This document shows, in pieces, positions 39,271 to 60,322 of a stretch of DNA of 64,000 bases (position 1 is its first letter; every line of letters begins with the position of its first letter). Where the stretch lies: NCBI GenBank assembly GCA_035570235.1, contig DATMML010000037.1, positions 152,426 to 216,425 of the forward strand. Reading direction: 5' to 3'. A model generated the notes under the pieces. The model was given only the letters and a program-made list of their open reading frames with translations. It was not told the DNA's origin and did not search any database. Position numbers and translations under genes: made by a program. Source of the stretch: Vicinamibacteria bacterium (lineage in GTDB: Bacteria; Acidobacteriota; Vicinamibacteria; Fen-336).

Positions 39271-39323
39271 GGCGACCCCTTATTCTAGAAGTGTCTCGGT
39301 TGTGGGTGTCCTCGATCCGTCAT

Positions 39324-39350
39324 CATAACTAATAGTGGACGCTAGTTATG
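39324..39350. promoter_or_regulatory. inverted repeat CATAACTA-N11-TAGTTATG in an AT-rich divergent promoter region
   Basis: Perfect 8-bp inverted repeat, with a third CATAAC copy at 39364; in a 120-bp AT-rich island between the FGE-like gene and the M28 peptidase gene. Confidence 0.3.
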
Positions 39351-39408
39351 GCATATACTATAACATAACACTCTAGGTGTTTCCAGTTCTACCAAGCGAG
39401 GACCCCAG

Positions 39409-42756: not shown

Positions 42757-44019
<1,263 letters not shown>

Positions 44020-44023
<4 letters not shown>

Positions 44024-44955
44024 GAGGCCGCCCCCGCGCCGCCCCCGAGCAGGAGGTAGAGCACGGCCATGCGGACGGCCACCCCGTTGGTGACCTGGTC
44101 CAAGATCACGGAGTAGGGCCCGTCGGCCACCTCGCTCGCGATCTCCACCCCGCGGTTCATGGGGCCGGGGTGAAGGATCAGCACGTCCTTCTTGGCCCGC
44201 CGGACCCGCTCCTCGGTGAGGCCGAAGCGGTTGAAGAACTCCCGGGGGGAGGGGAGGTAGCCGCCCGTCATCCGCTCCCGCTGGATCCGCAGCACCATGA
44301 TCGCGTCCGCCCCCTCCACCGCCTCCTCGATCCGCCAGGTGACGGGGGCCAGCCGCTCGATCCCGGGGGGCACCAGGGTGGGAGGGGCGCACAGCACGAC
44401 CGAGGCCCCCATCTTCGAGAGCAGCCACAGGTTCGAGCGGGCCACCCGGCTGTGCAGCAGGTCCCCTACGATGGCCACCCGCAGACCCTTGAGCCGCCCC
44501 TTGCGCTGGCGGAGGGTGAGGGCGTCGAGGAGGGCCTGGGTGGGGTGCTCGTGGGCCCCGTCCCCCGCGTTCACGATCGCGGACCGGCAATGCCGGGCCA
44601 GGAAGTGCGGGGCCCCGGAGGAGGCGTGGCGGATCACGATCATGTCTGGGTTCATGGCCTCGAGGTTCTTGGCGGTGTCGAGCAGCGTCTCTCCCTTCTG
44701 GACGCTGGAGGTGGCGGTCGAGATGCTGAGGCTGTCCGCGGAGAGGACCTTCTCCGCGATCTCGAACGACGAGCGGGTGCGCGTGGAGGCCTCGTAGAAG
44801 AGGTTGACCACGGTCTTGCCCCTGAGCACGGGCACCTTTTTGATGGGGCGGTCCAGCACCTCCTTCAGCCCGTCCGCGGTGTCGAGGACCACCTGGATAT
44901 CGGCCGGCTCCAGGGGCTCGATGCCCAGGAGATGGCGGTGGGGGAACGCGCTCAC
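44020..44955 (-). CDS. pyrB: aspartate carbamoyltransferase catalytic subunit
   Basis: STRTR carbamoyl-phosphate motif, HPTQ and HPGP motifs. Confidence 0.9.
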
Positions 44956-45569
44956 TTCCCTCTCCTTCCCCGGGCCCGCCCGCGGCGGGCCCCCCCCCGC
45001 TGGGCCCGCCGGGCCCGGCGCTCCAGGAGCAGGACCCCGTCCCTTCCGTCCTCCTCCCGGAGAAGCACCTGCACGATCTCCTGCCGCGCCGTGGCCAGGC
45101 TCCGACCCGCGTAGTCGGCGCGGATGGGGAGCTCGCGGTGGCCCCGGTCCACGAGCACGGCCAGCTCGATGCGGTCGGGGCGGCCGAAGTCGATGAGCTG
45201 GTCGAGGGCGGCGCGCACCGTGCGCCCGGTGAAGAGCACGTCGTCCACCACGATCACCGTGCGGCCGTCGATGGAGAAGGGGATCTCGGTTCCCTTGGTG
45301 ATGGGCTGGCTCGCGATCATCGTGAAATCGTCGCGGTAGAGGGAGATGTCCAGGGCCCCCACCGCGGGCTCGACCCCGCTCGCCTCCCGGAGGAGACCGG
45401 CCAGCCGGCGGGCGAGGGGCACCCCGCGGCTGCGCACCCCCACCAGCACCACCCCCCGCATGTCGGGGTGGCGCTCCAGGATCTCGTGGGCCATGCGGGC
45501 CAGGGTGCGGGCCACGCGGCCCGCGTCCATGAGAACTGCCTTCTCAATCTGGGGAGAGGGGCCGGCCAT
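44952..45569 (-). CDS. pyrR: bifunctional pyrimidine operon regulator / uracil phosphoribosyltransferase PyrR
   Basis: PRTase motif [13 protein letters not shown]; conserved PyrR N-terminus; unusual Arg-rich C-terminal tail; stop overlaps the pyrB start (GTGA). Confidence 0.85.
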
Positions 45570-45746
45570 TCAAGCCACCCGGGCCCCGTCCGGCACCGGA
45601 AGCTCGGGGAGGACGGTCTTGGGGGCCCCCTTCAGGAGCCGCGCGGACACGATCGTGCCGACCCGGATCTGCAAGCTCAGGAAGTCGTCGAGGCTGGCCA
45701 AGGCGGGCGGATGGTACCGCGCCCCGCTCCCACGGACAAGCCTTGC

Positions 45747-46445
45747 TCATGCGGGCTCCCCCAGGATCGCGCGCAGCGCCACCTCGGTTTGCGAGAAGTC
45801 GTCGAGGAGCGCGTCGGGGGACTCCGCGGCCAGGCGCTCTTGGGGCGTCCGCCCCGTGGCCACCGCCACCGCCCGCACGCCCAGGCCACGCCCGCAGAGC
45901 ACGTCGTGGATGGAGTCCCCGACGACCACCACCCGCTTCCCCGCGAACTCCAGCCCGGTGAGGTCGCGCGCGCGGGCCACGGCCAGGGCGGGCAGGCGAT
46001 AGCGGTCCTCGTGGTCGGAGCCGAAGGCCCCGAAGGGGAAGTGGCGGTTGGCGCGGAGGGGCGCGAGCTTGGCCCGCGCACAGGGCTCCAGGTTGCCGGT
46101 GAGGAGGCCAAGCGTGACCCCCCTCGTCGCGGCCAGGGCCTCCAGGAGGGGGCCCACGCCCGGCTTGGCCACCACGTCCTCCGGGCGCAGGAGCTCCAGG
46201 AGCCGCGAGCGGTACCGCTCCAGGGCGGTTGAGCGAAGGGCCACGATCTCTTCGTCCAGAAAGCCGGCCCCCCGCATGAGCTCGCGCACGATCTGGGGAT
46301 CGGTCTTCCCGGAATAGTCGTATCCGGCGACGGGGCCCACGGCGCCGAACGTCTCCTGGAGCGCGTCCTCCAGAGCCCGCGAGGAGACCCCTCCCGCGGA
46401 GAGGAGCGTGCCGTCGATGTCGAAGAGCACGAGCCGTGGGGTCAG
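45747..46445 (-). CDS. HAD-superfamily hydrolase
   Basis: LVLFDIDGTL motif I, later motifs (GDSIHD); CTG start after GGAGAG inferred, directly after the upstream gene stop. Confidence 0.65.
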   Translation of the reverse strand: MTPRLVLFDIDGTLLSAGGVSSRALEDALQETFGAVGPVAGYDYSGKTDPQIVRELMRGAGFLDEEIVALRSTALERYRSRLLELLRPEDVVAKPGVGPLLEALAATRGVTLGLLTGNLEPCARAKLAPLRANRHFPFGAFGSDHEDRYRLPALAVARARDLTGLEFAGKRVVVVGDSIHDVLCGRGLGVRAVAVATGRTPQERLAAESPDALLDDFSQTEVALRAILGEPA

Positions 46446-48274
46446 GGGCTCTCCTCGGGCAGGGGCGGAAGGTCGTCGAGGCTGCCCCCGGCCGTGATGG
46501 GGGTGATGGCGAGGCTCTCGTAGCTGGGGATGAAGGTGACGGGGTGGGCCTGGGCGAAGTCCTCGTCGACGATCTCGGTCAGGACCCGCCCCTCCATGTC
46601 GCGGGCCACGGGCAACCCGATCAAGTAGAGGAGGGTGGGTGCCACGTCGAGGACGGAGGCGCTGCCCAGCACGGCGCCCGGTCGCACTCCGTCCCCCACC
46701 GCCATCAGGAACCCGTCCGGCGCGCCCGCGTGGGTCCCGCTCATGCCGGAGCCGCCGGTCGCCCCATCCAGGAGCCGCCGCCAGAGGGGGACGGGCTCCA
46801 TGCCATAGCCGGACACGACCACCAGGATCTCCCCCGGGCGCAGCTGCTTCTCCGTCTCCCCCACCCATTGGCTGAGCAGGGCCTGATAGCGGTCGAGGAC
46901 CCGCCCGTAGCGCCGCGTCTCTTGGGCACGCACGTCGCCGAAGCTCTCGGGATGGGCATAGCGCAGGAAGGCGTGGCCGACCACGTCCAGGCCGTAGAAG
47001 TAGGTGGCAAAGAAGGGGGGGTCGTAGGCGGCCCTGAGGACGGAGCCCGCCCGCCGGTAGGTGAGGTCCGGAGCCAGGGCCCGCTCCACCAGGTCCCGCC
47101 GCCAGGGAAGGTCGTCCCCCCCGGAACGCAGGGGGGGCTCGACGAACTCGGAGAGCAGGGCCTCGTCCACGTCCCCCGCGGGCACGGAGCGGGACTTGAC
47201 CTCCGCGATCAGGTCGCGGGGGTAGAGGGTGTCGGCGGCCCGGACCGGATCGTCGCGGAGCAGGTGGAAGTAGGGGGAGAGCATGAACCCCTGCACGCGC
47301 TCCGGCGGGTAGGTGCCCCAGATGCGAACGATCCCGGTGGGGATGCCGAAGGCGTTGAGCGCGTTCCACAGGGCCCGCCGCTTGCGGGCGGTGGAGGTCA
47401 CGGGCCGGGTGGAAACGAGCCCCACCCGCTCCAGGAGCCGGACCAGAGCCCCCTTGGGCAGGAGCTCGTAGGTGGTGGTGGAGCCGAGCACCCGGTAGGT
47501 GGCGAAGCTCTTCACCCCATGGTCGCGGGGCAGGCGCCCGGTGAGTATGGTGGTCCAGACGGGCGGCCCTTCCGTGGGGCGCAGGGTGGCGAGGGGCCCC
47601 CCCGCCCCTCTCTTCAGGATGCGCGCGAACGCGGGCAGGTTGCCCTTGGTCACGCCCGAAGCGACCACGTCCGGGCCGAGGCCGTCCACACCCACGAGGA
47701 GGACCCGCCGCGTGGGAGTGATGGTCTCCGTGGCCAGGGGGAGGGGGCGGGCCTCGGCCGCGGGGAGGGGACGCAGGGCCAGGGGAAGGATCACGGCCGC
47801 GGAGGGGGCGAGGACGACGAGGGCGGCGGAGAAGCCGCGGCCCCGGCGGGGGAAGAGAAACAGGTCCACGCCCACCGCGAGAAGGACCAGGAGGGCGGCG
47901 GAGACGGCCAGGCCGGACGCGAAGAGGCCACGGAGGAACTCCACCGGGATCGAGTGGCGGTAGCTGAGCAGGTTCATCCAATAGAGGGCGGCCGCGGCGG
48001 AGAGGGCCAGGAAAGCGAGCCCGGGGAAAAAGGGGAGCCCCGAGAGCAGGGGTGGGGAGGGGCGGGAACCCCCCAAGAGCGCGTGGAAAAGGAGAGCGAG
48101 GAGCGCGAGGCCCGCGGTGCCGACCACGAGGTAGGGGAGGAAGAAGGAGACCAGGAGGGCCAGGGCCTCCCCGCGCAGCCGGATCCCCGGGTTCAGGAAG
48201 AGGGTGAGCGCGACCAGGTCCGCGGCCAGGATCGCGGCCGCCGCGGCCGCGCTGCCCAGGGTTCGCCGGAACAT
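46442..48274 (-). CDS. membrane-anchored alkaline phosphatase / type I phosphodiesterase family protein
   Basis: N-terminal approx. 180 aa multi-TM region; C-terminal domain with VGVDGLGPD and HG motifs of the AlkP/NPP superfamily. Confidence 0.6.
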   Translation of the reverse strand: MFRRTLGSAAAAAAILAADLVALTLFLNPGIRLRGEALALLVSFFLPYLVVGTAGLALLALLFHALLGGSRPSPPLLSGLPFFPGLAFLALSAAAALYWMNLLSYRHSIPVEFLRGLFASGLAVSAALLVLLAVGVDLFLFPRRGRGFSAALVVLAPSAAVILPLALRPLPAAEARPLPLATETITPTRRVLLVGVDGLGPDVVASGVTKGNLPAFARILKRGAGGPLATLRPTEGPPVWTTILTGRLPRDHGVKSFATYRVLGSTTTYELLPKGALVRLLERVGLVSTRPVTSTARKRRALWNALNAFGIPTGIVRIWGTYPPERVQGFMLSPYFHLLRDDPVRAADTLYPRDLIAEVKSRSVPAGDVDEALLSEFVEPPLRSGGDDLPWRRDLVERALAPDLTYRRAGSVLRAAYDPPFFATYFYGLDVVGHAFLRYAHPESFGDVRAQETRRYGRVLDRYQALLSQWVGETEKQLRPGEILVVVSGYGMEPVPLWRRLLDGATGGSGMSGTHAGAPDGFLMAVGDGVRPGAVLGSASVLDVAPTLLYLIGLPVARDMEGRVLTEIVDEDFAQAHPVTFIPSYESLAITPITAGGSLDDLPPLPEESP

Positions 48275-48349
48275 CAGGAGAGCCTACCCGATTTGGCGCG
48301 CCCTCGCCCCCGTCGACGAACCGCGCCGCCGCCGGTTATCATCGGGGGA

Positions 48350-49192
48350 ATGCCCGCCGACGAGCCCGCTCCTCTCCTCGCCCGCGAGCCGCTGGAGGGC
48401 GCCTACGTGCTCCTCACCTTCCGGCACGCGGAGACGGCCCGCGCCGCCCGCGCTGGCCAGTTCGTGATGATCAAGGCGGGCACGAGCCCCGAGCTTCCCC
48501 TCCGCAGGCCCTTCTCGGTCATGAGCGTGGACCGCGCGCGGCAAACCTTCACCCTCTTCCTGAAGGCGGTGGGGCCGGGGAGCCGGGCCCTGGCCGGCCT
48601 GCGCGTGGGGGAGGTGGCCCAGTGCCTGGGACCCCTGGGCCGATCGTTCCCGCCCCCGGGCGCGGGGGAGGAGGCCTTGCTCGTGGCCGGCGGCTACGGG
48701 ATCGCCCCCTTCCGCCTCTTCTGCGAAGAGCTCGGCACCGGCCCCCGGGCCCGCGTGTTCTACGGCGGCCGCACCGGTCACGATCTGCAACTGCGCGACC
48801 GCTTCGCGGACCTCAAGGTGCCGCTCCTGCCCGCCACCGAGGACGGGAGCGTCGGCCACCGCGGGCGGGTCACCTCCGCGCTCGAGGCCTACCTGGACGG
48901 GCGGCCAGGCCCGGTGCGGCTCTACGCCTGCGGCCCCCCCGCGATGCTCCAGGCGGTGGCGAGCTTGGCCGGCGAGCGGGGCCTCGAGGCCTCGGTGAGC
49001 CTCGATCCCTGGATGGGCTGCGGCCTCGGCACCTGCCTGAGCTGCGTGGTCTGGACCCAGGAGCGGGAAGAGCCGCGGCCCCACTACCGCTGCGCCTGCA
49101 CCGAGGGCCCGGTCTTCGACGCCAAAACCGTGGTCTGGCCGGGAGAGGTGACGTCGCTCGCCCGGCGGCGGCCGGAGAGGTCCCCCGCGTGA
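48350..49192 (+). CDS. pyrK: dihydroorotate dehydrogenase electron transfer subunit
   Basis: FAD/NAD-binding FNR-like fold (RPFSV) and C-terminal CGxGxCxxC...C [2Fe-2S] motif (MGCGLGTCLSCVV); ATG at 48350 inside the larger track ORF. Confidence 0.85.
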   Translation: MPADEPAPLLAREPLEGAYVLLTFRHAETARAARAGQFVMIKAGTSPELPLRRPFSVMSVDRARQTFTLFLKAVGPGSRALAGLRVGEVAQCLGPLGRSFPPPGAGEEALLVAGGYGIAPFRLFCEELGTGPRARVFYGGRTGHDLQLRDRFADLKVPLLPATEDGSVGHRGRVTSALEAYLDGRPGPVRLYACGPPAMLQAVASLAGERGLEASVSLDPWMGCGLGTCLSCVVWTQEREEPRPHYRCACTEGPVFDAKTVVWPGEVTSLARRRPERSPA

Positions 49193-50130
49193 ACCTCTCC
49201 GTCGAGATCGCGGGCCTGCGTCTCAAGAACCCCTTGATCGCCGCCTCCGGCACGTTCGGGTACGGGGTCGAGTACGAGGGGATCTTGGATTTGTCCCGTC
49301 TCGGCGGCCTCGTCTCCAAGGGGCTCTACCTCGAGCCCCGCGACGGCTGCCCCCCCCCGCGCATCGTGGAGACGCCGTCGGGGCTCCTGAACGCGATCGG
49401 CCTCCAGGGGGTGGGCGTCCGGGCCTTCGTGCGAGACGTCCTGCCCCGCCTCCTCGTCCACGACACCGCAATCTTCGTGAACGTCTGCGGCGACACCGTC
49501 GAGGAATACGCGGAGGTAGCGCGTATCCTGGAAGACGCGCCGGGGGTGGCCGGGCTCGAGATCAACATCTCCTGCCCCAACGTCAAGAAGGGGGGGATGG
49601 CCTTTGGTGGCGATCCCCGCATGACCCATGAGGTGGTGGCGGCGGTGCGCAAAGCCACCCTCCGGCCCGTGATCCCGAAGCTCTCGCCCAACGTGGCCGA
49701 CATCACCGTCTTCGCGCGGGCGGCCGCGGAGGCGGGCGCGGATGCCCTCTCCTGCATCAACACCCTCCTGGGCCTGGCCATCGACGTGGAGACCGCGAGG
49801 CCCGCCCTCGCCTTCGGCACCGGGGGCCTCTCGGGTCCCGCAATCCGGCCCCTGGCCGTGCGGATGGCCTGGCAAGCGGCCCGCGCGGTCAAGATCCCCG
49901 TCATCGGCGTGGGGGGGATCGCGTCCGCCCGCGACGCGCTCGAGTTCCTGATCGCGGGCTGCCGGGCCGTTCAGGTGGGGACCGCGAACTTCGTCAACGT
50001 GGGCATCTACGATCGGATCCTCGCCGACCTCGGCCACTACCTGGAGCGGCACGGACGGACGGACATCAATGAGGTCGTGGCCACCCTCTCCTATCCCGAT
50101 TCGGCCCCGGCGCCCCCGAGAAGCGAATGA
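49189..50130 (+). CDS. pyrD: dihydroorotate dehydrogenase catalytic subunit (class 1B)
   Basis: [15 protein letters not shown], active-site Cys motif, FMN-binding GGI motif; GTG start overlaps the pyrK stop. Confidence 0.9.
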
Positions 50131-50822
50131 CGCCCCGGGAGCGCCTGATCGTGGCCCTGGACCTGCCCGGCCGCGAGGAGGCGCTCGCCCTCGTCGGCCG
50201 CCTGGCCGGCCGGGCGGGGATGTTCAAGGTCGGAAGCCGGCTCTTCACCGCGGCGGGGCCGGACCTCGTGCGCGAGCTTTTGGCCCGGGGCGAGAAGGTC
50301 TTTTTGGACCTCAAGTACCACGACATCCCCGACGTCGTGGGCGCCGCCGTGGGCGAGGCCGCCCGCTTGGGGGTGTCGCTCCTGGACGTCCACGCCCTCG
50401 GCGGCCCGGCCATGATCGAGGCGGCGGCGGGGGCTCTGCCCGCCCTCGGCACGCGCCTTCTGGCCGTGACCATCCTGACCAGCCACGACCAGCCGGACCT
50501 GGACCAGGTCGGGATCGGGGGGCCGCTCACGGAGTCGGTGCGGCGCCTCGCTCTGCTGGCCAAGGCCTCCGGAGTGGACGGTGTGGTGGCCTCGCCCCAC
50601 GAGGCCGCTCTCCTCCGCGAGGCGTGCGGTCCCCAATTCCTGATCGTGACCCCGGGCATCCGGCCGGCGGGGGCGCGGGCCGGCGACCAGGCGCGCGCCG
50701 CCACCCCCGGCGCCGCCCTGGCCGCGGGAGCGGACTACCTCGTGGTGGGCCGGCCCATCACCGAGGCCCCGGATCCGTCCGCCGCGCTCGAGGCCATCGT
50801 CCGGGAGATGGAAGCGGTTTGA
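50127..50822 (+). CDS. pyrF: orotidine 5'-phosphate decarboxylase
   Basis: LIVALD...[10 protein letters not shown] catalytic lysine motif; start overlaps the pyrD stop. Confidence 0.9.
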
Positions 50823-50856
50823 CCCCCTCCCCCCCGCTCTGGTACGCTTGGAAGTT

Positions 50857-50887
50857 GAAAATGAAATTGAAATTCAATTTCATTATG
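50857..50887. promoter_or_regulatory. Fur-box-like AT-rich palindrome (TGAAATTGAA-A-TTCAATTTCA) overlapping the start codon of the cytochrome c/FTR1 gene
   Basis: Perfect 10-1-10 palindrome of GAAAAT/GAAATT hexamers (consensus Fur hexamer GATAAT) in an otherwise 70% GC context. Confidence 0.5.
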
Positions 50888-52801
50888 TCCCTCGTCCTCC
50901 TGGCCAGCGGCCTCCTGGCCGCTTGCGCGGGGGCGCCCGCGGCCCCCCAAGCGCCCGCCGCGGACGGGGGCGACGGCCAGCGCCTGGTCGCTCTCCTCGA
51001 CTACATCAGCGGCGACTACCGGCGCGCGGTCCGCGGCCGGCAGGTCCTGGTGGTGAGCGAGTACGAGGAGCAGATCCGGTTCGCGGGCGAGGCCCGCGGA
51101 CTGGCTCGCGGCCTCCTGGGCCCCTCCTCCTCCCCGGACGATCCCCTCCTGACCGGGCTCGCCGAGGTGGAGGCCCAGGTCCGGGCGAAGGCGGAGCCGG
51201 AAGCAGTGGCGGAGGTCTGCCGGTCGGCGCGCGAGCAGGCGGTGGCGCGCTTCAGCCTCCGCACCATGCCCGTCGAGCGGCCCTCCCTCCCCCGCGCCCA
51301 GCGCCTCTACGCCGAGTCCTGCACCCCCTGCCACGGCGCGCAGGGGAACGCCGACACCGAGCGGGCCCGTTCCTTCAACCCTCCCCCCGCGCGCTTCCGC
51401 GACCCCTCCCGCCTGGGCGAGATGTCTCCCTACCGGATCTACAACGCGCTCACCTTCGGCGTCCCCGGCACGGCCATGGCCTCCTTCGACAGCCTGTCCC
51501 CCGCCGACCGCTGGAGCCTGGCCTTCTACGTCTTCCGGCTGGGGCACGAGGGCGAGAGGGCGGGAGCCCCCGTGGCCATGACCCTGGCCGACATGGCCGG
51601 CCGCTCCGACCTCGAGATCGCCGCCGGCCTTAAGGCCGAGAAGCACCCCGACCCCGACGGTGCGCTCGTCTACCTGCGGCGCGAGGCGGCCTTCACGGAG
51701 GCGCCGGCGGGGGTCGGGATCGACCGCACGCGGGAGATGGCCCGGCAGGCGGTGCGCCTGTACACCCAGGGGCGGGCGCGCGAGGCGGACCGCCTGGCCC
51801 TCGACGCCTACCTGCAGGGCTTCGAGCCGCTGGAGATGCGCCTGCGGGCCCGGGACGCCGCGGGCACGCTCCAGGTGGAGACCGGCTTCCGCGACCTTAG
51901 GGCCTCGATGGTTCAGGGGGAGACCGCCGATCGTGTGCGGGCCCGGGGCCAGGCCCTGGATGGCCGGCTGGCCTGGCTGGGGGAGGGAGGGCGGCGGCCC
52001 CTCGTCCCCCTGGCCGCGGGCTTCCTGATCTACTTCCGGGAGGGCGTCGAGGCCGCGCTCCTCGTGGGCGCTCTCCTGGCCGGCCTCAGGCGCCTCGGCC
52101 GCCCCGAGGCCGCGCGGTACCTCCACGCGGGCTGGCTTCTGGCCCTGCCCGCGGGCGTGGTCACCTGGTGGGTCTTCGACCGCGCCATCTCCCTGGGCTC
52201 GAGCCAGCGCGAGCTGATGGAGGCGCTCGTCGCCCTCCTGGCCGCGGCCGTGCTCTTCTCGGTGAGCTTCTGGATGATCTCCAAGGCGGAGTCCCGCCAC
52301 TGGATGGGCTACCTCAAGCAGAAGCTCGAGGCGGGGCTCTCCCGCCGCAGCCTCCTCGTCCTCTCCGGCCTGGCTTTCCTAGCCGTCTATCGGGAGGCCG
52401 CCGAGACCATCCTCTTCACTCAGGCCCTGCTCCTGGAGTCGGAGCTCCATCGGGCCGAGGTCTGGACGGGGGCGCTTCTGGGCCTCCTGGCGGTGGTGGT
52501 GGCGGCCGTCCTCATGAACCGCACCGTCCTGCGTCTGCCCCTCGGTCCCTTCTTCGCGGTCTCCAGCCTCCTCCTCTGCGGCCTCGCCATCTCCTTCGCG
52601 GGGACGGGCATCTACCAGCTGGTGGCGACGGGCTACCTGACCCCGCGCCCGGTGCCCTTCCCGGAGGTGCCCTGGATGGGCATCCATCCCGACCTGACCG
52701 GCCTGCTCGTTCAGCTCACGATCCTCCTCATCATCGCGGGGGCGGGGCTCCTCACCCTCCTGCGGCGGCCCCTGGCCCAGTCCGGCGGTCACGCCGCCTG
52801 A
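50861..52801 (+). CDS. cytochrome c / FTR1-family iron permease fusion (lipoprotein signal)
   Basis: MKLKF...LLAACAG lipobox; CTPCHG heme-binding CxxCH; two RExxE motifs (FREGVEA, YREAAET) in a 7-TM FTR1 permease domain. Confidence 0.8.
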   Translation: MKLKFNFIMSLVLLASGLLAACAGAPAAPQAPAADGGDGQRLVALLDYISGDYRRAVRGRQVLVVSEYEEQIRFAGEARGLARGLLGPSSSPDDPLLTGLAEVEAQVRAKAEPEAVAEVCRSAREQAVARFSLRTMPVERPSLPRAQRLYAESCTPCHGAQGNADTERARSFNPPPARFRDPSRLGEMSPYRIYNALTFGVPGTAMASFDSLSPADRWSLAFYVFRLGHEGERAGAPVAMTLADMAGRSDLEIAAGLKAEKHPDPDGALVYLRREAAFTEAPAGVGIDRTREMARQAVRLYTQGRAREADRLALDAYLQGFEPLEMRLRARDAAGTLQVETGFRDLRASMVQGETADRVRARGQALDGRLAWLGEGGRRPLVPLAAGFLIYFREGVEAALLVGALLAGLRRLGRPEAARYLHAGWLLALPAGVVTWWVFDRAISLGSSQRELMEALVALLAAAVLFSVSFWMISKAESRHWMGYLKQKLEAGLSRRSLLVLSGLAFLAVYREAAETILFTQALLLESELHRAEVWTGALLGLLAVVVAAVLMNRTVLRLPLGPFFAVSSLLLCGLAISFAGTGIYQLVATGYLTPRPVPFPEVPWMGIHPDLTGLLVQLTILLIIAGAGLLTLLRRPLAQSGGHAA

Positions 52802-52809
52802 AGCCGACG

Positions 52810-53067
52810 GTGTCCCCGCCCACCCTCACCCTGCTCGGCAGACCGGACTGCCGTCTCTGCCATGAGATGCGGGCGGTGGCGGAGCGGGTGCTCCTCGAGC
52901 CCGCCCGGGTCGTAGAGCGGGACGTCCGCGAGGACCCCGAGCTCGAGAAGCTCTACCGGCTGGAGATTCCGGTGCTGCTTTGGGGAGAGCGGGAGGTCGT
53001 CCGGCACCGCGTGACGGAGGCCGAGCTCCGCGGGCGGCTGCAGGAGCTCGGCTTCGGCCGCCCCTGA
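52810..53067 (+). CDS. glutaredoxin-like small protein (DUF836/YruB-like)
   Basis: LLGRPDCRLCHEM CxxC motif in an 85-aa thioredoxin fold; GTG start 9 nt after the upstream stop. Confidence 0.55.
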   Translation: MSPPTLTLLGRPDCRLCHEMRAVAERVLLEPARVVERDVREDPELEKLYRLEIPVLLWGEREVVRHRVTEAELRGRLQELGFGRP

Positions 53068-53070
53068 GGG

Positions 53071-53110
53071 AAAAAAGACGGCGTGCCCCAGGGGGGCACG
53101 CCGTCTTTGC
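53071..53110. terminator. bidirectional rho-independent terminator (GACGGCGTGCCCC-AGG-GGGGCACGCCGTC flanked by A6 / T3)
   Basis: 13-bp perfect GC-rich stem, 3-nt loop, A-run upstream and T-run downstream; sits between convergent genes. Confidence 0.6.
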
Positions 53111-53130
53111 CATCGCTGGCTTTTTGGTCG

Positions 53131-54642
53131 CTACTCGTCGGTGCGGAAGGTGAACACCACCCGCTCGCCGGCTCGGCCGCTCAGGCGGAAGACGACCGCC
53201 TCGCCCGAGATCTCGGCCACGCTTCCGGCCAGGACGCGCAGGCTGCCGGGAACCAGGTTGGCGGTGGCTCCGAGCTCGAAGCGCCACGTCCCGGGCTTTC
53301 CCGCCCCCTGGACGAGCTGGGCCTCGACCCGGTTCTCGCCCCGGCGGCCCGCGGCCAGCGCCGTGGACCCGCCCGGGCCCGCGAACGCCGCGGTCTCGCC
53401 GTTGACCATCACCTGACCGCTCGCTCCCTCGACGTCGAGCTGGCTCGCCCAACCGATCCGGCGGGCGAGGGCGGTCGTGGGTTGGGCGGTCGGGGAAACC
53501 GATGCCAGGCAGGGGGTGTCCTTCGAGACGCCGCTTGCGGCCACGGGGAAGAAGCAGGGCTGGAACGGCATGCGGACCTGGAAGTCCTCGTGGGCGTTGG
53601 GGGCGTTGCCGGGGGTGTTCTGCGTCTCCACCCTCATGCGCACGTCATAGACGAAGGTGATGGTGAAGACGGGCACGAGGTTTCCGCTCGCTCCGATGTT
53701 TCCGTTCGCATGCTGGCCGCCGAAGGGTGTCGTGATCCCGGTGACGGGGGTGAAGGTGATGGGAACGTCGCACTTGCCTCCCAGAGTCGTCGGAAAATTG
53801 GGCGGGGGCGGGATGGGACCGGGAAAGTTCGTCTCCACGTGCAGGTTCACGTCCACGTTGTAGGCGAGCTTGCCTGGTCCCGTGCTCTGGCACATGTCGA
53901 ACTCGACTTGCTGGGCCTGGAAGGGATTGAAGAAGGGCAGGTTGATGGGTGAGCCCTGCTCGACGCCGCCCAAGCGGACATGGAAGGAGGCGTTGAAGGG
54001 CACGGCGGGCAGGGTGGTCGTGGTGGTCGTGGGCAGCGCGGCGGGCGCGGTGGTCGGCGGCGAACCCGCGGTCTGCGTCGGCGAGGGCGAATTGCTGCTG
54101 CGGGTGGCCAGGGCGACGCCGCCCCCCACCACCGCCGCTCCCCCCACCGCCGCCAGCACCGTCGCCGTCCCGATTCCCGCCGCCGCAAACCCCGCGGGCA
54201 CGGCCGGAAACACCGCCCCCGGGGCGCTCGAGGCAAAGGGAGCCACGGGGGTGTCCTTCTGGCACTCGCTCTCGCTCTTCACTACCAGCGCCTCGTTGTC
54301 CACCGTCCGGTTCTCCAGGAACTTCTGGTCGAACGCGTCCACGTAGTACTGAATCTTCTTCCCGATAAGCTCCTTCCTGGGCTTGGGAAGAACCCCCGCG
54401 TGGCAGGGCGCATCCGCCTTCATCTCCACGTAGTACCAGTTCGGCGGTCCCTCCTCCGCCCGGAAGTAGACCCTCGCCCGGGCCACCTGGCCCGCGGGCG
54501 AAAAGCAGGCGTTCATCTTCGGATACTTTTCGGCCACGATGCACCCGATGGCTTTGTGATCGATCGTCAAGCCCTGCGCCCGCAGTGACCCCGGCAACAG
54601 CATCAAGAGCAGCGCGACTCCATTAACGGTGGCTCGCTTCAT
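53131..54642 (-). CDS. secreted paralog 1 of an uncharacterised triplicated family (Cys-containing N-domain, Gly/Ala hydrophobic segment, Thr/Pro linker, two further domains)
   Basis: Signal peptide LLPGSLRAQG; 60-75% identity by eye to the two downstream paralogs across all domains. Confidence 0.6.
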   Translation of the reverse strand: MKRATVNGVALLLMLLPGSLRAQGLTIDHKAIGCIVAEKYPKMNACFSPAGQVARARVYFRAEEGPPNWYYVEMKADAPCHAGVLPKPRKELIGKKIQYYVDAFDQKFLENRTVDNEALVVKSESECQKDTPVAPFASSAPGAVFPAVPAGFAAAGIGTATVLAAVGGAAVVGGGVALATRSSNSPSPTQTAGSPPTTAPAALPTTTTTTLPAVPFNASFHVRLGGVEQGSPINLPFFNPFQAQQVEFDMCQSTGPGKLAYNVDVNLHVETNFPGPIPPPPNFPTTLGGKCDVPITFTPVTGITTPFGGQHANGNIGASGNLVPVFTITFVYDVRMRVETQNTPGNAPNAHEDFQVRMPFQPCFFPVAASGVSKDTPCLASVSPTAQPTTALARRIGWASQLDVEGASGQVMVNGETAAFAGPGGSTALAAGRRGENRVEAQLVQGAGKPGTWRFELGATANLVPGSLRVLAGSVAEISGEAVVFRLSGRAGERVVFTFRTDE

Positions 54643-54763
54643 CGTTTAGCCTCCCCAGGCATCTCGCCGCGACCGGCCAGAGTACGGCGTGGCCGGACCG
54701 GCACGAGGGACTGTGTCTTATACGGGTGTTATAGCACAAAGGCAGGGTGGTCCCTAGGAAATA

Positions 54764-54802
54764 GGAGCGAGCGGCATGCCCCGCAGGGCACGCCGCTCGC
54801 TC
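54764..54802 (-). terminator. GC-rich hairpin (16-bp stem, 1 mismatch) downstream of paralog 2
   Basis: GGAGCGAGCGGCATGCC-CCGCAG-GGCACGCCGCTCGCTC; weak T-tract on the minus strand. Confidence 0.35.
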
Positions 54803-54817
54803 GCGGACCAGTTCTGA

Positions 54818-56248
54818 CTAGTTTGCGGTACGGAAGCTGAATACCACGCGCTCGCCCGGCCGGCCGCTCAGCCGGAAGACGACCGACTCACCCGACAGCA
54901 GGGCCACGTCGCCGGCGAGAACGCGCACGCTTCCCGGCATGACACCGGTCGTCGGCAAGTCGAAGCGCCAGGTGCCCGGCTTCCCCGCCCCCTGCACGAG
55001 CTGGGCTTCGACGCGGTTTTCTCCCACCCGGCCCGTGGCGAGAGAAGTCGACCGGCCGGGGCCCGCGAAGACCGCGGCCGCGCCGTTGATCACCACTTGG
55101 CCCGTGGCTTCCGGCACGTCTAGCTGGCTGGCCCAGACAATACGCCCCGCGGTTGAAGACTGCAGGCCCGAGTTGGACTCGAAGCCGAAGCCGCGGTCCA
55201 TCAGAATATGGACGTCCTGGTGCGCCTTCGGGCTGTTGCCGGGAGTGCCCGCCGTCTCCACCCTCATACGGACATCATAGCTGCCGATGAGGAAGAAGCC
55301 GAGGGAGCCGGAAGGTCTGAGAGCTGAGACTCCGAAGCCCCGGAAGGGTGATGAGATCCCCCGGTCAGTGAAGGTCATTGGAATGTTGCAGAGTCCTCCA
55401 AGCGTGACCGGGAAACCAGGGGGGCCAGGGAACCCCGGGACAGGGGTCTCGCCGACATCTACGTTGAAGGTGAGCGTGCCCGGCCCCGTGCTCTGGCACA
55501 TATCGAACTCGACCTGGGGAGGAACAAAGGGGTTCAGATCCAGGGACGTGCTCGTCTGCACCACCCCGCCCACCTTGACGATGAAGACGGCATTGAAGGG
55601 CACCTGGGGCTGGGTCGTGGTGGTTGTGGTCGGTATGGTCGCCGGTACCGTCGTGGGCGTCGTGACTAAGGGCTGCGTCGTTGGCGGCGGGTTGTTGTTG
55701 CTGCGGGTGGCGAGGGCGACTCCGCCCCCCACCACCGCCGCTCCCCCCACCGCCGCCACCACCGTCGCCGTCCCCACCCCCGCCGCCGCAAACCCCGCCG
55801 GCACGGCCGGGAAGACCGCGGCCGGCGCGCTCGTCGCGAAGGGCGCGACGGGCACGTCCTTCTTGCACTCGGACTCGCTTTTCACCACCAGCGCCTCGTT
55901 GTCCACGGTGCGGTTCTCCGCGAACTTCTGGTCGAAGGCGTTCACGTAGTAGAGGACCTTCTTCCCGATCAGCTGCTTCTTGGGCTTGGGAAGAACCCCT
56001 GCGTGGCAGGGGGCCTCCGACTTCATCTCCACGTAGTACCAGTTCGGCGGCCCGTCCTCCTGCCGGAAGTAGACGCGCGCCCGGGCCAGCTGGCTGGCGG
56101 GAGAAAAGCACGCGTTCAACTTGGGATACTTCTCGGCCACGATGCATCCCACCGGCTTGTGGTCGATGTTCAGCCCTTGGGCCAGAAGAGGGACCGGCAG
56201 CACCAGCAATAGCGACGCGACTCCGCGACGGACGGCTCGCTCCAACAT
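54818..56248 (-). CDS. secreted paralog 2 of the triplicated family
   Basis: ATG start 7 nt after a GGGAGG RBS; same domain order as paralog 1, including the C-terminal β-rich domain. Confidence 0.6.
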   Translation of the reverse strand: MLERAVRRGVASLLLVLPVPLLAQGLNIDHKPVGCIVAEKYPKLNACFSPASQLARARVYFRQEDGPPNWYYVEMKSEAPCHAGVLPKPKKQLIGKKVLYYVNAFDQKFAENRTVDNEALVVKSESECKKDVPVAPFATSAPAAVFPAVPAGFAAAGVGTATVVAAVGGAAVVGGGVALATRSNNNPPPTTQPLVTTPTTVPATIPTTTTTTQPQVPFNAVFIVKVGGVVQTSTSLDLNPFVPPQVEFDMCQSTGPGTLTFNVDVGETPVPGFPGPPGFPVTLGGLCNIPMTFTDRGISSPFRGFGVSALRPSGSLGFFLIGSYDVRMRVETAGTPGNSPKAHQDVHILMDRGFGFESNSGLQSSTAGRIVWASQLDVPEATGQVVINGAAAVFAGPGRSTSLATGRVGENRVEAQLVQGAGKPGTWRFDLPTTGVMPGSVRVLAGDVALLSGESVVFRLSGRPGERVVFSFRTAN

Positions 56249-56422
56249 GAATAGCCTCCCCAGGCTTTGCGCCGCGACCGGACACAAGAAAGCCTTGGCC
56301 GGACCGGCAGGAGGAATCTGTTCCCTAGTGTGCACGCCCCCGATACCACGAATGCGTTGTCGTTCCCGACAAAGAAGCGGGAGCGAACGGACCGGATTCA
56401 AGGGCACGCCGCAGGCCGACAT

Positions 56423-57475
56423 CTAACAGCAGTTCGTATTGAAGAGAATGTGGAAGTCCTGGTGGGCTTTCGGGCTGTTGCCCACCGTACCGGCCGTCTC
56501 CACCCGCATGCGGATGTCATAGCTGCCAATGACGAAGGGAGGCGGGGGAAAGGGCGGCGGGCCGGGGGGGGATGTGAACCCCCGGTCCGTGAAGGCGACG
56601 GGAATGCTGCAGGTCCCTCCCAGCGTGACCGGGAAGCCAGAAACGGGCGGGGAGAACTGAGCCGGGTTGGCCCCGATGTCGAGGTTGAAGGCGAGCTTGC
56701 CCGGGCCCGTGCTCTGGCACATGTTGAACTCGACGATGGGGGGGGTAGAGCAGGCGCACGTGTTCAGCGTGGGGCTCGTCTGAGGTGCCCCGTTCACCCG
56801 GACGATGAAGACGGCGTTGAAGGGTACGGGGGGGGTCGTGGCCGGGGTGGTGGTGGGCGTGGTGATCGGGGTCGTGACGGGCACGGTGGCGGGAATACCC
56901 TGAGTGGTAGGAGTCGGGTTGTTGTTCCCGCTCGACGCGAGCGCCACCCCGCCCCCCACCACCGCCGCTCCCCCCACCACCGCCGCCACCGTCGCCGTCC
57001 CCACTCCCGCCGCCGCAAACCCGGCCGGCATGGCGGGGAAGACGGCGGCGGGGGCGCCCGCCGCGAAGGGCGCGACGGGCAGGTCTTTCCGGCACTCGCC
57101 CTCGCTCTTCACGACCAAGGCCTCGTTGTCCACGGTGCGGTTCTCCGCGAACTTCTGGTCGAACGCGTTCACGTAGTAGAGGACCTTCTTCCCGATCAGC
57201 TGCTTCTTGGGCTTGGGAAGAACCCCTGCGTGGCAGGGGGCCTCCGACTTCATCTCCACGTAGTACCAGTTCGGCGGCCCGTCCGCCTGCCGGAAATAGA
57301 CGCGGGCCCGTGCCAGCTGGCTGGCGGGCGAAAAGCACGCGTTCAACTTGGGATACTTCTCGGCCACGATGCATCCCACCGGTTTGTGGTCGATGTTCAG
57401 CCCTTGGGCGAGAAGAGGGACGGGAAGCACCACCCACAGCAATGCGACTCCGCGACGCACGGCCCGCTCAAACAT
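56423..57475 (-). CDS. secreted paralog 3 of the triplicated family, C-terminally truncated (possible pseudogene or variant)
   Basis: Identical N-terminal half to paralog 2; ends ...HILFNTNCC, lacking the last approx. 125 aa present in paralogs 1 and 2. Confidence 0.5.
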   Translation of the reverse strand: MFERAVRRGVALLWVVLPVPLLAQGLNIDHKPVGCIVAEKYPKLNACFSPASQLARARVYFRQADGPPNWYYVEMKSEAPCHAGVLPKPKKQLIGKKVLYYVNAFDQKFAENRTVDNEALVVKSEGECRKDLPVAPFAAGAPAAVFPAMPAGFAAAGVGTATVAAVVGGAAVVGGGVALASSGNNNPTPTTQGIPATVPVTTPITTPTTTPATTPPVPFNAVFIVRVNGAPQTSPTLNTCACSTPPIVEFNMCQSTGPGKLAFNLDIGANPAQFSPPVSGFPVTLGGTCSIPVAFTDRGFTSPPGPPPFPPPPFVIGSYDIRMRVETAGTVGNSPKAHQDFHILFNTNCC

Positions 57476-57730
57476 GAATAGCCTCCCGAGGCTTTGCGTG
57501 CCGGACACAGGAAGCAGGTGGCCGGACCGGTAGGAGGGATTTCCCGGCGATATTAGCACGAAGGTCAAGCCTCGGTGGCGTGCCCGGCGGGGAAAGGGCG
57601 TCGTTTTCTGTTCTCTCCTTGTCCACTGCGAAGAGAATTTTGGGGCCGGAACCCTATCCGCGGCTCGGGAGGGCGGAGGGTGCGGGCGTGGGGGCGCGGA
57701 GCGGCTCCGGGAGAGCAACCCCCGCGTGAG

Positions 57731-60322
57731 CTAGCGCTCTTTCGCGCTCTCCTCTGCCTCCAGGCGGCGGGCCCAGGGGGTGTCGGAAAACTCCTCCCGC
57801 AAACGCTTTCGATCGGCGTCCGCGCCTTCGGCGTCACCGGCCGCCTCCCGCGCCGCCGCTCCTCCGAACAGGGCCTGGGCCACGTAGGGGCTGGTGGGGG
57901 CCTCGAGCACCAGAGCGGAGAAGGCCTCCGCCGCTTCCCGCGGGTGACCGACTCGGGCCAGGCTCTCCCCGCGCAAGCAGAGCATCTCCGCGCGCAGAGG
58001 CGACCCCCCGGGCGCGAAACTGGCGCCGTGCCGGGCGTACTCCGCAGCCTCTTCGAAATGCTCGGCGGCGTACGCTCTCGACGCGCGTTCGTAGAGGGTC
58101 GTCGGATCCCCCGCCGGATGACGGGGCCCGCTCGCAAACCGGCTGGCCACCAGGAGGAGCAAGAGGCCGCCGGGGACGAGACCGCCCCAGCGGCGGCCGG
58201 GCGAGGGCAGGGCGCACGCCTCCACCGGGTTTGGCCCCGGAGTGGGGCTTGACTCGGAGACCCGCCGCCGGCGCCGCAAGGCCGCGGCCACGACTCCGAG
58301 GGCGATCCCGGAGAGTCCGAGGCCCAGCCAGTCGGCGGCGTTGCGCGAGGGGTAAATGAGCCGCACCGTGCTCTGCCGGGGTATCACCATCATGAGAGCG
58401 GGCGAGATCAGGTAAGGGCCGTCCGCTCCCTCCGCCCGCCAGCGCGGGTGGTAGGAGATCTTCACCAGCAGGGGGTGGCCCGGATGGTCGGTGGTGATGG
58501 TGAGGCCTTCCGCCTCCACCCTCTCCTCCACCTTCACGTCCCCGGGGAGGGGCAGGAGGGGCGGGGCCAGCCACTCATCCTTCTCCACGACCCCGATGCG
58601 GGGGTCATCGGTGAAGACGAGGGGGGCAGGGCTGAGCGGCTTGCGCGTGAACCAGCGGTAGGCCTTGTCCCGCCAATGGGCGGGTGGGGAACGCACGGGC
58701 GCGAAGGGGAGCGGCTCCACGTAGGAGGAGCCGGAGGAGGCCAGATGGAAGATCCGGTAGGGGGGGATGCTGGCCACGCTCATCACGTCGGCCCGGGCGT
58801 CCAGGGCGGAGATGAGCTGGGGCGAGAGGGCCACGACCTCGTTGACGTTGAAGAGCCGCAGGCGGGGAAAGGCGTTCTCGGGATCAAAGTGCGAGTACTC
58901 ACGGCTTCGGAAGGGGTTGGGAGAGCTCGCGAAGAGCTCGGAGGCCAGGTAATAGACGGCGTGGGTCTGGAGGCTGGCCTGGTTGTAGACCCCCTCGAGG
59001 GTGGAGCGGCCGGTGAAGAAGGGCAGGGTCTCGTACATCCGGATGGATCCCGCTTTTTCGTGGGTGGCGCTGTATTCGACGGCCACCCGCGGATCGGCGA
59101 CCGTGCCCTGGAGGCGGTCGGAGAGCTCGCGGAAGGCGGGCCACAGCTCCTTGGCCTCGAGGCCGGTGTAGTTCCAGTCGATCCAGGAGCGCAGTACCTT
59201 CGATTGCCCGTCTACGTGGCAGACGGCGACGAGCACCAGGCCCAGGGCGGCCAGGTCCGGGGCGGACAGGAGGCGGAGGCCGAGGCCGAGGCTGACGCCC
59301 CCCGCCAGGCAAAGCGCGAGGTGGGTGAAGGGGACGAAGCGGACGTCGATGATGCCGAGGGCCGGCCCCGCCGCGGCCAAGGCCGCCCCCACCGCCGCCG
59401 CGTGGATGAGGAACAGCAGCCGGTGGTCGGGCCCCCCGGTACGACGGGCCCAGAGGAGCGTAGACAGGAGGCCGGCTGAGGCGACCACGAAGAGGGGCCA
59501 GAGCAGAAACGGGAAGAGCCCATGGGTGGTGACCGTGATCCAGGGGTCATCGTAGGGCGTGGTCCAGCGCCAATAGAAAAGGAGGGGCACGAGGGTGACG
59601 CCGGCAAGGGCGAAGGCCAGCCCGGCCAGGGCCAGGAGCCAGCGCAGCGTCCGCGCCGGGCGGCGGGCCGCGTAAAGGAAATAGGAAGCGGAGAGGCCGG
59701 CCCAGAGCACGGCGTACCCGTGGGCGAGGGCGGTGAGGGCAAGGAGGAGGGCCGGGACCCAGGGTCCACGGCCATCGGCAAAGCACCGATACGTGCATCC
59801 CAGGAAGAGGACGGCGAGACCGATGCCATACGTATAAGCGAACTCTCCGGTCAGGGTGCTGGCCAGGCTGCCCCCCCAGATCGCGTTCTCCTCCAGGAAG
59901 AGGAACACGAGGGCCCCCGCCGCTCCCAGAAGGGGGGCGGGAAAACCGAAACCCAGGAGCCGGAGCGCGGCGTAGGTCAGCAGAGGCAAGAGGAACACCC
60001 CGAGCACGGTGCCGAGCTTGAAGGCCACGGGCATGCCCGTCAGGGGGGCCAGGCCCGAGATGATGAGGAAGGGAAGGGGAAAGTAGTAGAGAAGGAGCGG
60101 CTGCCCAAGATAGGCCCCGGGATACCAGCCGTGGAGGCGCAGGCTCGGCAGGAGGCGCTCGTGGAACCAGACCGCGGTGGGATAGTGGCAGGGCGTATCA
60201 CCCCCCGCGGCGATGGTGGGCAGGAAGAGCAGCGAGGGTCGGAGGTAGTCCAGGAGCACCAGGAGCAGAACGAGGAGGCCGAGGGCGTCCGCGGTCCGCT
60301 CCCGCCAGCGGGGCAATGACAT
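57731..60322 (-). CDS. large polytopic membrane protein with extracytoplasmic domain and C-terminal TPR-like region (glycosyltransferase-39/ArnT-like or YfhO-like topology)
   Basis: About 12 TM helices at the N-terminus, a 300-aa soluble domain, another TM, then a TPR-like helical tail; family assignment uncertain. Confidence 0.55.
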   Translation of the reverse strand: MSLPRWRERTADALGLLVLLLVLLDYLRPSLLFLPTIAAGGDTPCHYPTAVWFHERLLPSLRLHGWYPGAYLGQPLLLYYFPLPFLIISGLAPLTGMPVAFKLGTVLGVFLLPLLTYAALRLLGFGFPAPLLGAAGALVFLFLEENAIWGGSLASTLTGEFAYTYGIGLAVLFLGCTYRCFADGRGPWVPALLLALTALAHGYAVLWAGLSASYFLYAARRPARTLRWLLALAGLAFALAGVTLVPLLFYWRWTTPYDDPWITVTTHGLFPFLLWPLFVVASAGLLSTLLWARRTGGPDHRLLFLIHAAAVGAALAAAGPALGIIDVRFVPFTHLALCLAGGVSLGLGLRLLSAPDLAALGLVLVAVCHVDGQSKVLRSWIDWNYTGLEAKELWPAFRELSDRLQGTVADPRVAVEYSATHEKAGSIRMYETLPFFTGRSTLEGVYNQASLQTHAVYYLASELFASSPNPFRSREYSHFDPENAFPRLRLFNVNEVVALSPQLISALDARADVMSVASIPPYRIFHLASSGSSYVEPLPFAPVRSPPAHWRDKAYRWFTRKPLSPAPLVFTDDPRIGVVEKDEWLAPPLLPLPGDVKVEERVEAEGLTITTDHPGHPLLVKISYHPRWRAEGADGPYLISPALMMVIPRQSTVRLIYPSRNAADWLGLGLSGIALGVVAAALRRRRRVSESSPTPGPNPVEACALPSPGRRWGGLVPGGLLLLLVASRFASGPRHPAGDPTTLYERASRAYAAEHFEEAAEYARHGASFAPGGSPLRAEMLCLRGESLARVGHPREAAEAFSALVLEAPTSPYVAQALFGGAAAREAAGDAEGADADRKRLREEFSDTPWARRLEAEESAKER

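Follow-up and report, generated by a model that had tools for sequence, protein, structure and literature searches.

A 64,000-nucleotide stretch of DNA from a Vicinamibacteria bacterium (contig DATMML010000037.1, positions 152,426 to 216,425), which is called the window below, was found to carry two adjacent plus-strand genes whose likely physiological role is iron uptake. The first, gene A (50861–52801), is a single open reading frame (ORF) of 646 amino acids (aa) plus stop and almost certainly encodes a member of the PbrT-type cytochrome c/FTR1 family. The second, gene B (52810–53067, GTG start), encodes an 85-aa glutaredoxin-like protein of the DUF836 family. We favour, by analogy and with moderate confidence, a reading in which the two genes would form an iron-uptake operon, probably repressed by a Fur-family regulator, and the heme of the gene A protein would oxidise Fe(II) so that Fe(III) could be transported. 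The parts of this reading differ in strength. Iron uptake is its firmest part, the ferroxidase direction of the heme, which is argued by analogy, is a finely balanced judgement, and any specific role for gene B is doubtful.

The earlier note on this DNA had proposed that a lipobox, a cytochrome c and an FTR1 permease are combined in one polypeptide, and this was borne out by the 646-aa ORF. Gene A matched FTR1 (PF03239, 80.1 versus 25.3 bits) above the Pfam gathering cut-off, and aa 145–224 matched both Cytochrome_CBB3 (33.2 versus 27 bits) and Cytochrom_C (32.8 versus 21.3 bits). An AlphaFold2 model based on 117 diverse homologs (mean predicted local distance difference test score, pLDDT, of 89; predicted template modelling score, pTM, of 0.72) showed, in order, a signal-peptide helix, four helices at residues 36–131, a compact domain at ~140–230, further helices at 242–374 and seven long helices at 381–634. 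The fusion is real, and with it the placement of an oxidoreductase partner in cis with the permease. The signal peptide (aa 1–22, 50861–50926 on the plus strand, assigned from the sequence) has a K-rich N-region (K2/K4) and a hydrophobic core in front of L19-A20-A21-C22, which fits the lipobox pattern [LVI][ASTVI][GAS]C. Lipidation at Cys22 after Sec export is probable for gene A; a lipobox-like motif is common among close homologs (81 of 120) but much less so among the diverse family members (18 of 117).

The cytochrome c domain (aa ~140–230, 51278–51550, plus strand) was assigned to class I with a single heme. The only CxxCH of the protein, C154-T-P-C157-H158, is encoded at 51320–51334, M206 is the axial ligand, and CxxCH, a distal Met and a cytochrome c fold are all present, as in class I c-type cytochromes. 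Thus the mono-heme site and the heme-binding fold that had been expected in the N-terminal region were both found, but the ~330 aa first attributed to the cytochrome c domain were a large overestimate. In the model, the fold is compact, comprises only ~90 aa and lies between two helical modules.

The periplasmic region of ~355 aa is helical outside the heme domain. Module 1 consists of four helices (aa 36–131, 50966–51253, plus strand), and module 2 (aa 242–374, 51584–51982, plus strand) leads straight into the first transmembrane helix (TM1). Taken alone, the two modules gave no Pfam match at E values up to 10, and in the PDB they matched only generic four-helix bundles. Their acidic and Tyr residues were strongly conserved among the 117 homologs: Y48, Y53, E67 and E70 of module 1 and Y317, E325, E340 and R347 of module 2 were invariant, as were C154, C157, H158 and M206 of the heme domain, and D52 and E322 were nearly so (115/117 each). 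The invariant Tyr/Asp/Glu residues of the modules suggest that they likely form an iron-binding site.

The FTR1/EfeU-type permease domain (aa 381–634, 52001–52762, plus strand) was delimited by the Pfam FTR1 match, the model helices and hydropathy. Its seven transmembrane helices were as previously described, whereas the count of two RExxE motifs was too low. Three were found, namely R393-E-G-V-E397 in TM1, R450-E-L-M-E454 at the start of TM3 (52208–52222) and R511-E-A-A-E515 in TM4. The motifs of TM1 and TM4 were invariant in 117/117 homologs; in the third, R450 was kept in 111, E451 in 116 and E454 in all 117, the first two being regarded as nearly invariant. The full set of invariant permease residues comprised R393, E394, E397, E454, R511, E512, E515 and Q618. 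Several K/R residues were located in the TM3-4 loop and the C-terminal tail. The signal peptide, the seven model helices and these K/R-containing segments together fit an N-out, C-in topology, which would place the N-terminal region in the periplasm, the site of c-type heme attachment, and we infer that the heme is bound covalently there. The FTR1 part gave no PDB match by sequence or by fold.

Gene A is a member of the FTR1 superfamily. Its identification as an EfeU ortholog was considered and rejected: the NCBIfam EfeU model (NF041756) scored 101.1 bits against an equivalog cut-off of 255 bits, TIGR00145 was also below its cut-off, and no efeO or efeB partner gene was present among the neighbours. 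Neither was a P19 or polyferredoxin gene found among the window neighbours examined.

In the mechanism that we propose, periplasmic Fe(II) would be captured by the acidic and Tyr-rich helical modules and oxidised to Fe(III) by the heme, which would take the role played elsewhere by Fet3p, FtrB or EfeB/EfeO. The Fe(III) would then be passed to the glutamates of the three RExxE motifs and conducted inward, and the electron would leave the heme to a periplasmic acceptor or to the respiratory chain. The ferroxidase direction is favoured because of the analogy with other FTR1 systems. Yeast Ftr1p needs the ferroxidase Fet3p, FtrABCD of Bordetella and Brucella uses the cupredoxin FtrB, and EfeUOB uses EfeO/EfeB. 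These split systems (Fet3p/Ftr1p, EfeUOB, and FtrABCD or P19-cFtr1) resemble gene A in having a seven-helix FTR1 permease with RExxE motifs and in needing an extracytoplasmic redox partner; gene A differs from them in that a c-type heme is fused in cis, instead of a separate copper oxidase, cupredoxin or DyP peroxidase. The potentials of class I His/Met cytochromes c are typically high enough to oxidise carboxylate-bound Fe(II).

A c-type heme can pass electrons either way, and the architecture of gene A does not fix the direction. The heme domain could instead be a ferric reductase, which would convert periplasmic Fe(III) or its chelates to Fe(II) for import through the FTR1 channel. The naming of EfeU-type systems agrees with this possibility, as they are often called ferrous-iron transporters and TIGR00145 is entitled 'EfeU/Ftr1 family ferrous iron transporter subunit'. 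Nevertheless, we consider a reductase unlikely. Every FTR1 system that has been studied (Fet3p/Ftr1p, FtrABCD, EfeUOB) has a partner that oxidises Fe(II) or handles Fe(III), and a single His/Met class I heme is usually of high potential and a poor reductant of Fe(III) at neutral pH. Moreover, no membrane protein that could donate electrons, for instance a quinol dehydrogenase or a polyferredoxin, is encoded near gene A. A pathway with a logic similar to that of our ferroxidase mechanism is that of cFTR1 (Slr0964) in Synechocystis sp. PCC 6803, an FTR1-family permease that is reported to be induced by iron starvation and to take up Fe(III) via reduction and re-oxidation (Xu et al. 2016 as cited in bioRxiv 10.1101/2021.11.08.467730, PMC7676907). 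In that work, the re-oxidation is ascribed to oxygen and not to a heme domain.

The fusion of a cytochrome c to FTR1 is not new; it is already named and widespread. Hundreds of homologs in GenBank are called 'cytochrome c/FTR1 family iron permease' or 'high-affinity iron transporter', and the first of these names was found both on Vicinamibacteria homologs (62–93% identity) and on plasmid homologs (29–37%) with the same domain order. NCBIfam has no dedicated model for the cytochrome c/FTR1 branch. When 1.84 billion cluster representatives (50% identity clusters) were scanned, 6966 relatives of gene A were obtained at E ≤ 0.001 and 809 at E ≤ 1e-30. The best 150 representatives were almost all 600–700 aa long and aligned over the whole query (~residues 20–635) with E < 1e-79, and 146 of them contained CxxCH; in all, the full length is common to more than 150 such clusters. 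Among 10 low-GC cluster representatives, only Calditrichota and Balneolaceae were represented by name.

A collection of species-representative genomes was searched with a 14-sequence alignment, the 117-sequence alignment being too diverse for this use. Relatives of gene A were encoded on 465 stretches, and the best 80 of these came from Vicinamibacteria, Binatia, Eisenbacteria, Myxococcota, Planctomycetota, Thermodesulfobacteriota, Flavobacteriales and several proteobacterial groups. The best protein matches of gene A were from Vicinamibacteria/Acidobacteriota, and its nearest public relative, with 93% amino-acid identity, was locus L003 in a Vicinamibacteria metagenome-assembled genome. Gene A is probably chromosomal, and homologous loci were found on contigs of Mb scale.

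Inspection of the DNA around the start codon of gene A revealed a putative Fur-box-like operator (50857–50884). The start codon lies in an AT-rich island (50843–50895) within DNA of ~74% G+C and is covered by a perfect 12-1-12 palindrome, AATGAAATTGAA-A-TTCAATTTCATT, at 50860–50884; 100 shuffles gave no match. Related loci carry a 9-1-9 palindrome at this spot, with the clade consensus TGAAAATGAAATTCATTTTCA. By manual comparison, the consensus GAAAATGAAATTCATTTTC matched 15 of the 19 positions of the E. coli Fur box GATAATGATAATCATTATC. In 38 of 82 loci, a site with at most four mismatches was present no more than a few bases from the start codon; among these were several Myxococcota and every close Vicinamibacteria locus whose 5' end is intact. 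Elsewhere in 847 kb, only two weak sites were found. Loci with the palindrome at the same position include L001–L031, L051, L073, L043 and L054, and it was also kept in those loci of a more distant Vicinamibacteria clade whose start region was examined. The first codons of gene A, of the M-K-F-I-F type, are evidently constrained by the palindromic DNA element. As a sole explanation, an AT-rich start that merely eases near-leaderless translation was discarded in view of the exact dyad symmetry and the nucleotide conservation across phyla.

Candidate promoter elements were located directly upstream by manual reading and by comparison across loci. A –35-like TTGACC (50819–50824, plus strand) overlaps the stop codon of pyrF (50820–50822), and in most close Vicinamibacteria loci TTGAC(C/G) stands at the corresponding position in front of the homologous gene. 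It is followed, after an 18-nt spacer, by a –10-like TACGCT (TAnnnT; 50843–50848, plus strand), and TAC(G/A)CT or TAGnCT stands at the same distance in L002, L007, L009, L011 and L012. Because only 12 nt separate the –10-like element from the ATG, the 5' untranslated region would be very short, which implies a near-leaderless transcript whose predicted start (near 50854–50856) is covered by the operator. A strict sigma-70 promoter and terminator scanner called nothing in 50000–54000.

Genes of related function were observed next to the permease in other phyla. A FUR-family gene was directly upstream of it in 13 loci, which represent 12 genomic places, and in Binatia loci ferric ABC transporter genes and ExbB were neighbours. 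Together with the conserved palindrome, these neighbours argue for iron-responsive repression and for iron uptake. The operon is probably repressed by a Fur-family regulator, which, when iron is plentiful, would bind the palindrome over the start codon and the predicted transcription start and shut the operon.

The closest named protein offers a different view of the substrate. PbrT (Rmet_5945), encoded on plasmid pMOL30 of Cupriavidus metallidurans CH34, aligned end to end with gene A in BLASTP (32% identity over 650 columns, residues 8–640, E of 5e-88). The two proteins are of similar length (642 versus 646 aa), both match Pfam Cytochrome_CBB3/Cytochrom_C plus FTR1, and both contain CxxCH, the Met ligand, LDYxxxDY, EYxE, AYLDGFEPxE and three RExxE motifs. 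The pbrT gene is part of a plasmid-borne, MerR-regulated lead-resistance operon beside pbrR, pbrA and pbrB/C. PbrT belongs to the iron/lead transporter family and has been regarded as a putative importer of Pb(II), with an uncertain role in lead resistance (PMC3431237); in a proteome table it was labelled 'iron permease FTR1' (PMC11647595). The N-terminal module alone matched 110 plasmid records, a single match spanning at least 80% of the module in 101 of them, and almost all of the plasmid matches listed were annotated as FTR1 or cytochrome c/FTR1 permeases. On pA81 and pENH91, the family gene stood beside genes for a cation transporter, cadR/pbrR, a P-type ATPase and a PAP2 phosphatase. Plasmid members at L086, L088, L089 and L087 (pA81, pENH91, pMOL30 and pBSY17_3) were accompanied by Tn3-type transposases and by Pb/Cd or arsenic-resistance genes, and two ecological contexts were apparent for the family, one chromosomal and iron-linked, the other mobile and linked to metal resistance.

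The end-to-end alignment with PbrT, and the many plasmid members in metal-resistance islands with cadR/pbrR, P-type ATPase, PAP2 phosphatase and arsenic-resistance genes, would fit gene A importing lead or some other non-iron metal, in the manner proposed for PbrT; another possibility is a redox-gated sensor or channel whose heme, rather than catalysing iron oxidation, reports periplasmic redox state or O2. Both options appear very unlikely. Gene A differs from PbrT in having a lipobox, a downstream Glrx-like gene and a Fur-box-like operator rather than a MerR-type promoter, and no metal-resistance genes were found near it among the window neighbours. In addition, chromosomal members of other phyla adjoin fur, ferric ABC transporter and exbB genes, all residues needed for FTR1 iron transport are invariant, and an iron permease that takes up a toxic metal more plausibly does so as a side activity.

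Downstream of gene A, the 85-aa CxxC protein of glutaredoxin fold was found as the earlier note had it; the spacing differed, the gap between the stop of gene A and the start of gene B being 8 nt and not 9. The start was placed at GTG 52810, as the frame from 52811 is full of stops and the aligned homologs begin with (M/V)-S-P-P-T-L-T-L-L-G. There is no hairpin between the two genes. In relatives, the permease and B genes were separated by 2 nt or overlapped in ATGA, and the pair was kept where the flanking genes differ. These features make co-transcription of genes A and B a well-supported prediction; a functional link between them would be plausible.

Gene B matched Pfam Glrx-like/DUF836 (PF05768) with 56.2 versus 26 bits. 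Its model (pLDDT 89.7) is a thioredoxin fold in the order beta-alpha-beta-alpha-beta-beta-alpha, and the best PDB matches were the DUF836 structures 1wjk and 1ttz, plus thioredoxins. The active site is C14-R-L-C17-H18, with cis-Pro54, and C14, C17 and I53-P54 were invariant in 23 homologs. The same fold (TM-scores of 0.65–0.78), CxLC motif and cis-Pro are found in 1wjk (mouse C330018D20Rik) and 1ttz (Xanthomonas XCC2852), but the gene B subfamily is distinguished from other DUF836 proteins by a nearly invariant His directly past the CxxC and by its position beside a permease gene. H18, E19 and M20 were at least 90% conserved in the subfamily, giving C-x-L-C-H-E-M (52849–52869). The active site thus includes a CxxCH string, which resembles a heme c attachment site although the protein is predicted to be cytoplasmic. 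The conserved H-E-M may point to metal binding and not to plain disulfide exchange. To our knowledge, the function of DUF836 proteins is essentially unknown.

Because no signal peptide was found in any of the 23 homologs, the gene B protein is predicted to be cytoplasmic. The suggestion that it supplies or recycles electrons directly to the heme was contradicted by this location: with gene B in the cytoplasm and the heme domain in the periplasm, a direct redox link is excluded, and the two could be linked only at the cytoplasmic face or indirectly. In the favoured reading, gene B would act at the cytoplasmic side, where it would reduce or pass on the imported Fe(III) or take part in local thiol redox, and it would not be a partner of the periplasmic heme. 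The thioredoxin-like proteins of P19 clusters are periplasmic, in contrast to gene B. Thioredoxin-like genes are present in some Gram-negative P19-FTR1 clusters (PMC8238504).

A B-like gene lay directly 3' of the permease gene in 22 of 22 informative loci with a permease at least 56% identical to gene A; two further loci at this level of identity end at a contig edge and were left out of the count. Among the loci compared, it was absent after the permease in the Vicinamibacteria clade of 48–55% identity and in every other phylum. The pairing thus occurs in only one Vicinamibacteria clade and does not characterise the family as a whole. Look-ups that started from B homologs (51–59% identity) gave the same picture, as 3 of 3 adjoined a permease gene, the two genes being 2 nt apart or overlapping by 4 nt. 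At L085 (2035–4004, in a long-read assembly), the permease gene next to the Glrx-like gene was split into several short ORFs, which probably reflects assembly frameshifts and not a pseudogene. At nine loci (L021, L024–L028, L030, L051 and L073; permease 48–52% identical), mostly of the more distant Vicinamibacteria clade, the gene that follows the permease encodes a glyoxalase/VOC-domain protein of ~381 aa, ~85 nt downstream on the same strand.

The canonical thioredoxin fold, CxxC and cis-Pro of gene B, and its predicted location in the cytoplasm, where CcdA/DsbD get their electrons, would also be in line with a role in cytochrome c maturation (thioredoxin to CcdA/DsbD to the apocytochrome CxxCH), whereby gene B would help the heme domain to mature upon induction of the operon. 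Alternatively, it could be a general thiol oxidoreductase that only shares the transcript; a B-like gene is absent with most members of the permease family, so the permease generally does not need B. We regard both explanations as improbable. Every B homolog whose context was examined adjoins a permease gene, the housekeeping thioredoxin normally serves CcdA/DsbD, and neither ccdA nor dsbD nor a ccm gene adjoined the A-B pair in the loci examined. At the other extreme, the pair could constitute a clade-specific, self-contained and copper-independent transmembrane redox relay, in which the heme would oxidise Fe(II) and the DUF836 protein would dock at the cytoplasmic face and reduce or receive Fe(III). 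We give this only a slim chance. If true, no dedicated cytoplasmic partner of an FTR1 permease would have been described before, and a bacterial DUF836 protein would for the first time be given a function.

Several observations weigh against the reading of genes A and B as a Fur-regulated, ferroxidase-driven iron-uptake operon. No acceptor for the heme electron was identified, and no functional study of the heme domain was found for any PbrT-type member. PbrT itself is only a 'putative' Pb(II) importer, and one model of lead resistance gives it no role (PMC3431237). The window's own best site matches 13 of the 19 positions of the E. coli Fur box, that is, 6 of 19 differ. There is no second operator site in the 64-kb window, and tblastn with the Fur protein of L037 gave nothing significant there, indicating the absence of a fur gene from the window; the regulator could therefore be another Fur-family protein (Zur, Mur or PerR) or be unrelated. 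Finally, the wider gene order, with pyrK-pyrD-pyrF upstream and the same convergent gene downstream, is also conserved in the clade, so that part of the A-B linkage may be inherited gene order.

Between the stop of gene B (53067) and that of the convergent gene (53131), folding revealed a GC-rich hairpin (53074–53108) with a perfect 16-bp stem and a 3-nt loop. Its free energy was ~–41 kcal/mol, and the z values versus shuffles were –5.4 (plus strand) and –5.0 (minus strand). The hairpin is flanked by A6, which gives a U6 tract on the minus strand; there is only U3 on the plus strand, where a small second hairpin and a U5 run follow at 53109–53125. It had been described as a strong bidirectional terminator. 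The strong hairpin on both strands was confirmed, but the U tract expected on the plus strand was not, and the strict scanner called no terminator. We predict that the hairpin acts as a canonical intrinsic terminator for the minus-strand gene and that it terminates the A-B operon less strongly.

The window has ~70% G+C. Upstream of gene A lie pyrK-like, pyrD and pyrF genes on the plus strand. Downstream of gene B, on the minus strand, there are three tandem paralogs encoding secreted proteins with no Pfam match, and then a gene for a PTPS_related membrane protein. The paralogs (53131–54642, 54818–56422 and 56423–57718) are 60–72% identical to one another. A conserved N-terminal domain and a Thr/Pro-rich linker are common to all three, but the C-terminal ~110 residues are missing from the third. 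L083 and L084 have a single copy of this secreted-protein gene at the same convergent position past the Glrx-like gene. The only other strongly AT-rich island in the window, at 39339–39383, falls in a divergent intergenic region (39264–39408) with repeated ATAAC/GTTAT elements. This region is flanked by an FGE-sulfatase-like gene on the minus strand and an M28 peptidase gene on the plus strand, and it is probably a promoter/operator region. No Rfam family was found in 44000–60000, and no tRNA in the 64-kb window.

Among the routes of high-affinity iron uptake, FTR1 permeases are a major one, and an outside redox partner is required in every system known. The heme-fused PbrT-type branch is widespread, in soil Acidobacteriota, Myxococcota, Binatia, Planctomycetota, many Proteobacteria and metal-resistance plasmids. 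The clade-specific, predicted cytoplasmic thioredoxin-like companion and the putative operator are modest additions to this known family, by which nothing is overturned. The model of gene A provides a short list of invariant periplasmic Tyr/Asp/Glu residues. The conserved, putative Fur-type operator speaks for the chromosomal members having an iron function, which in turn would make PbrT a recruited iron permease.

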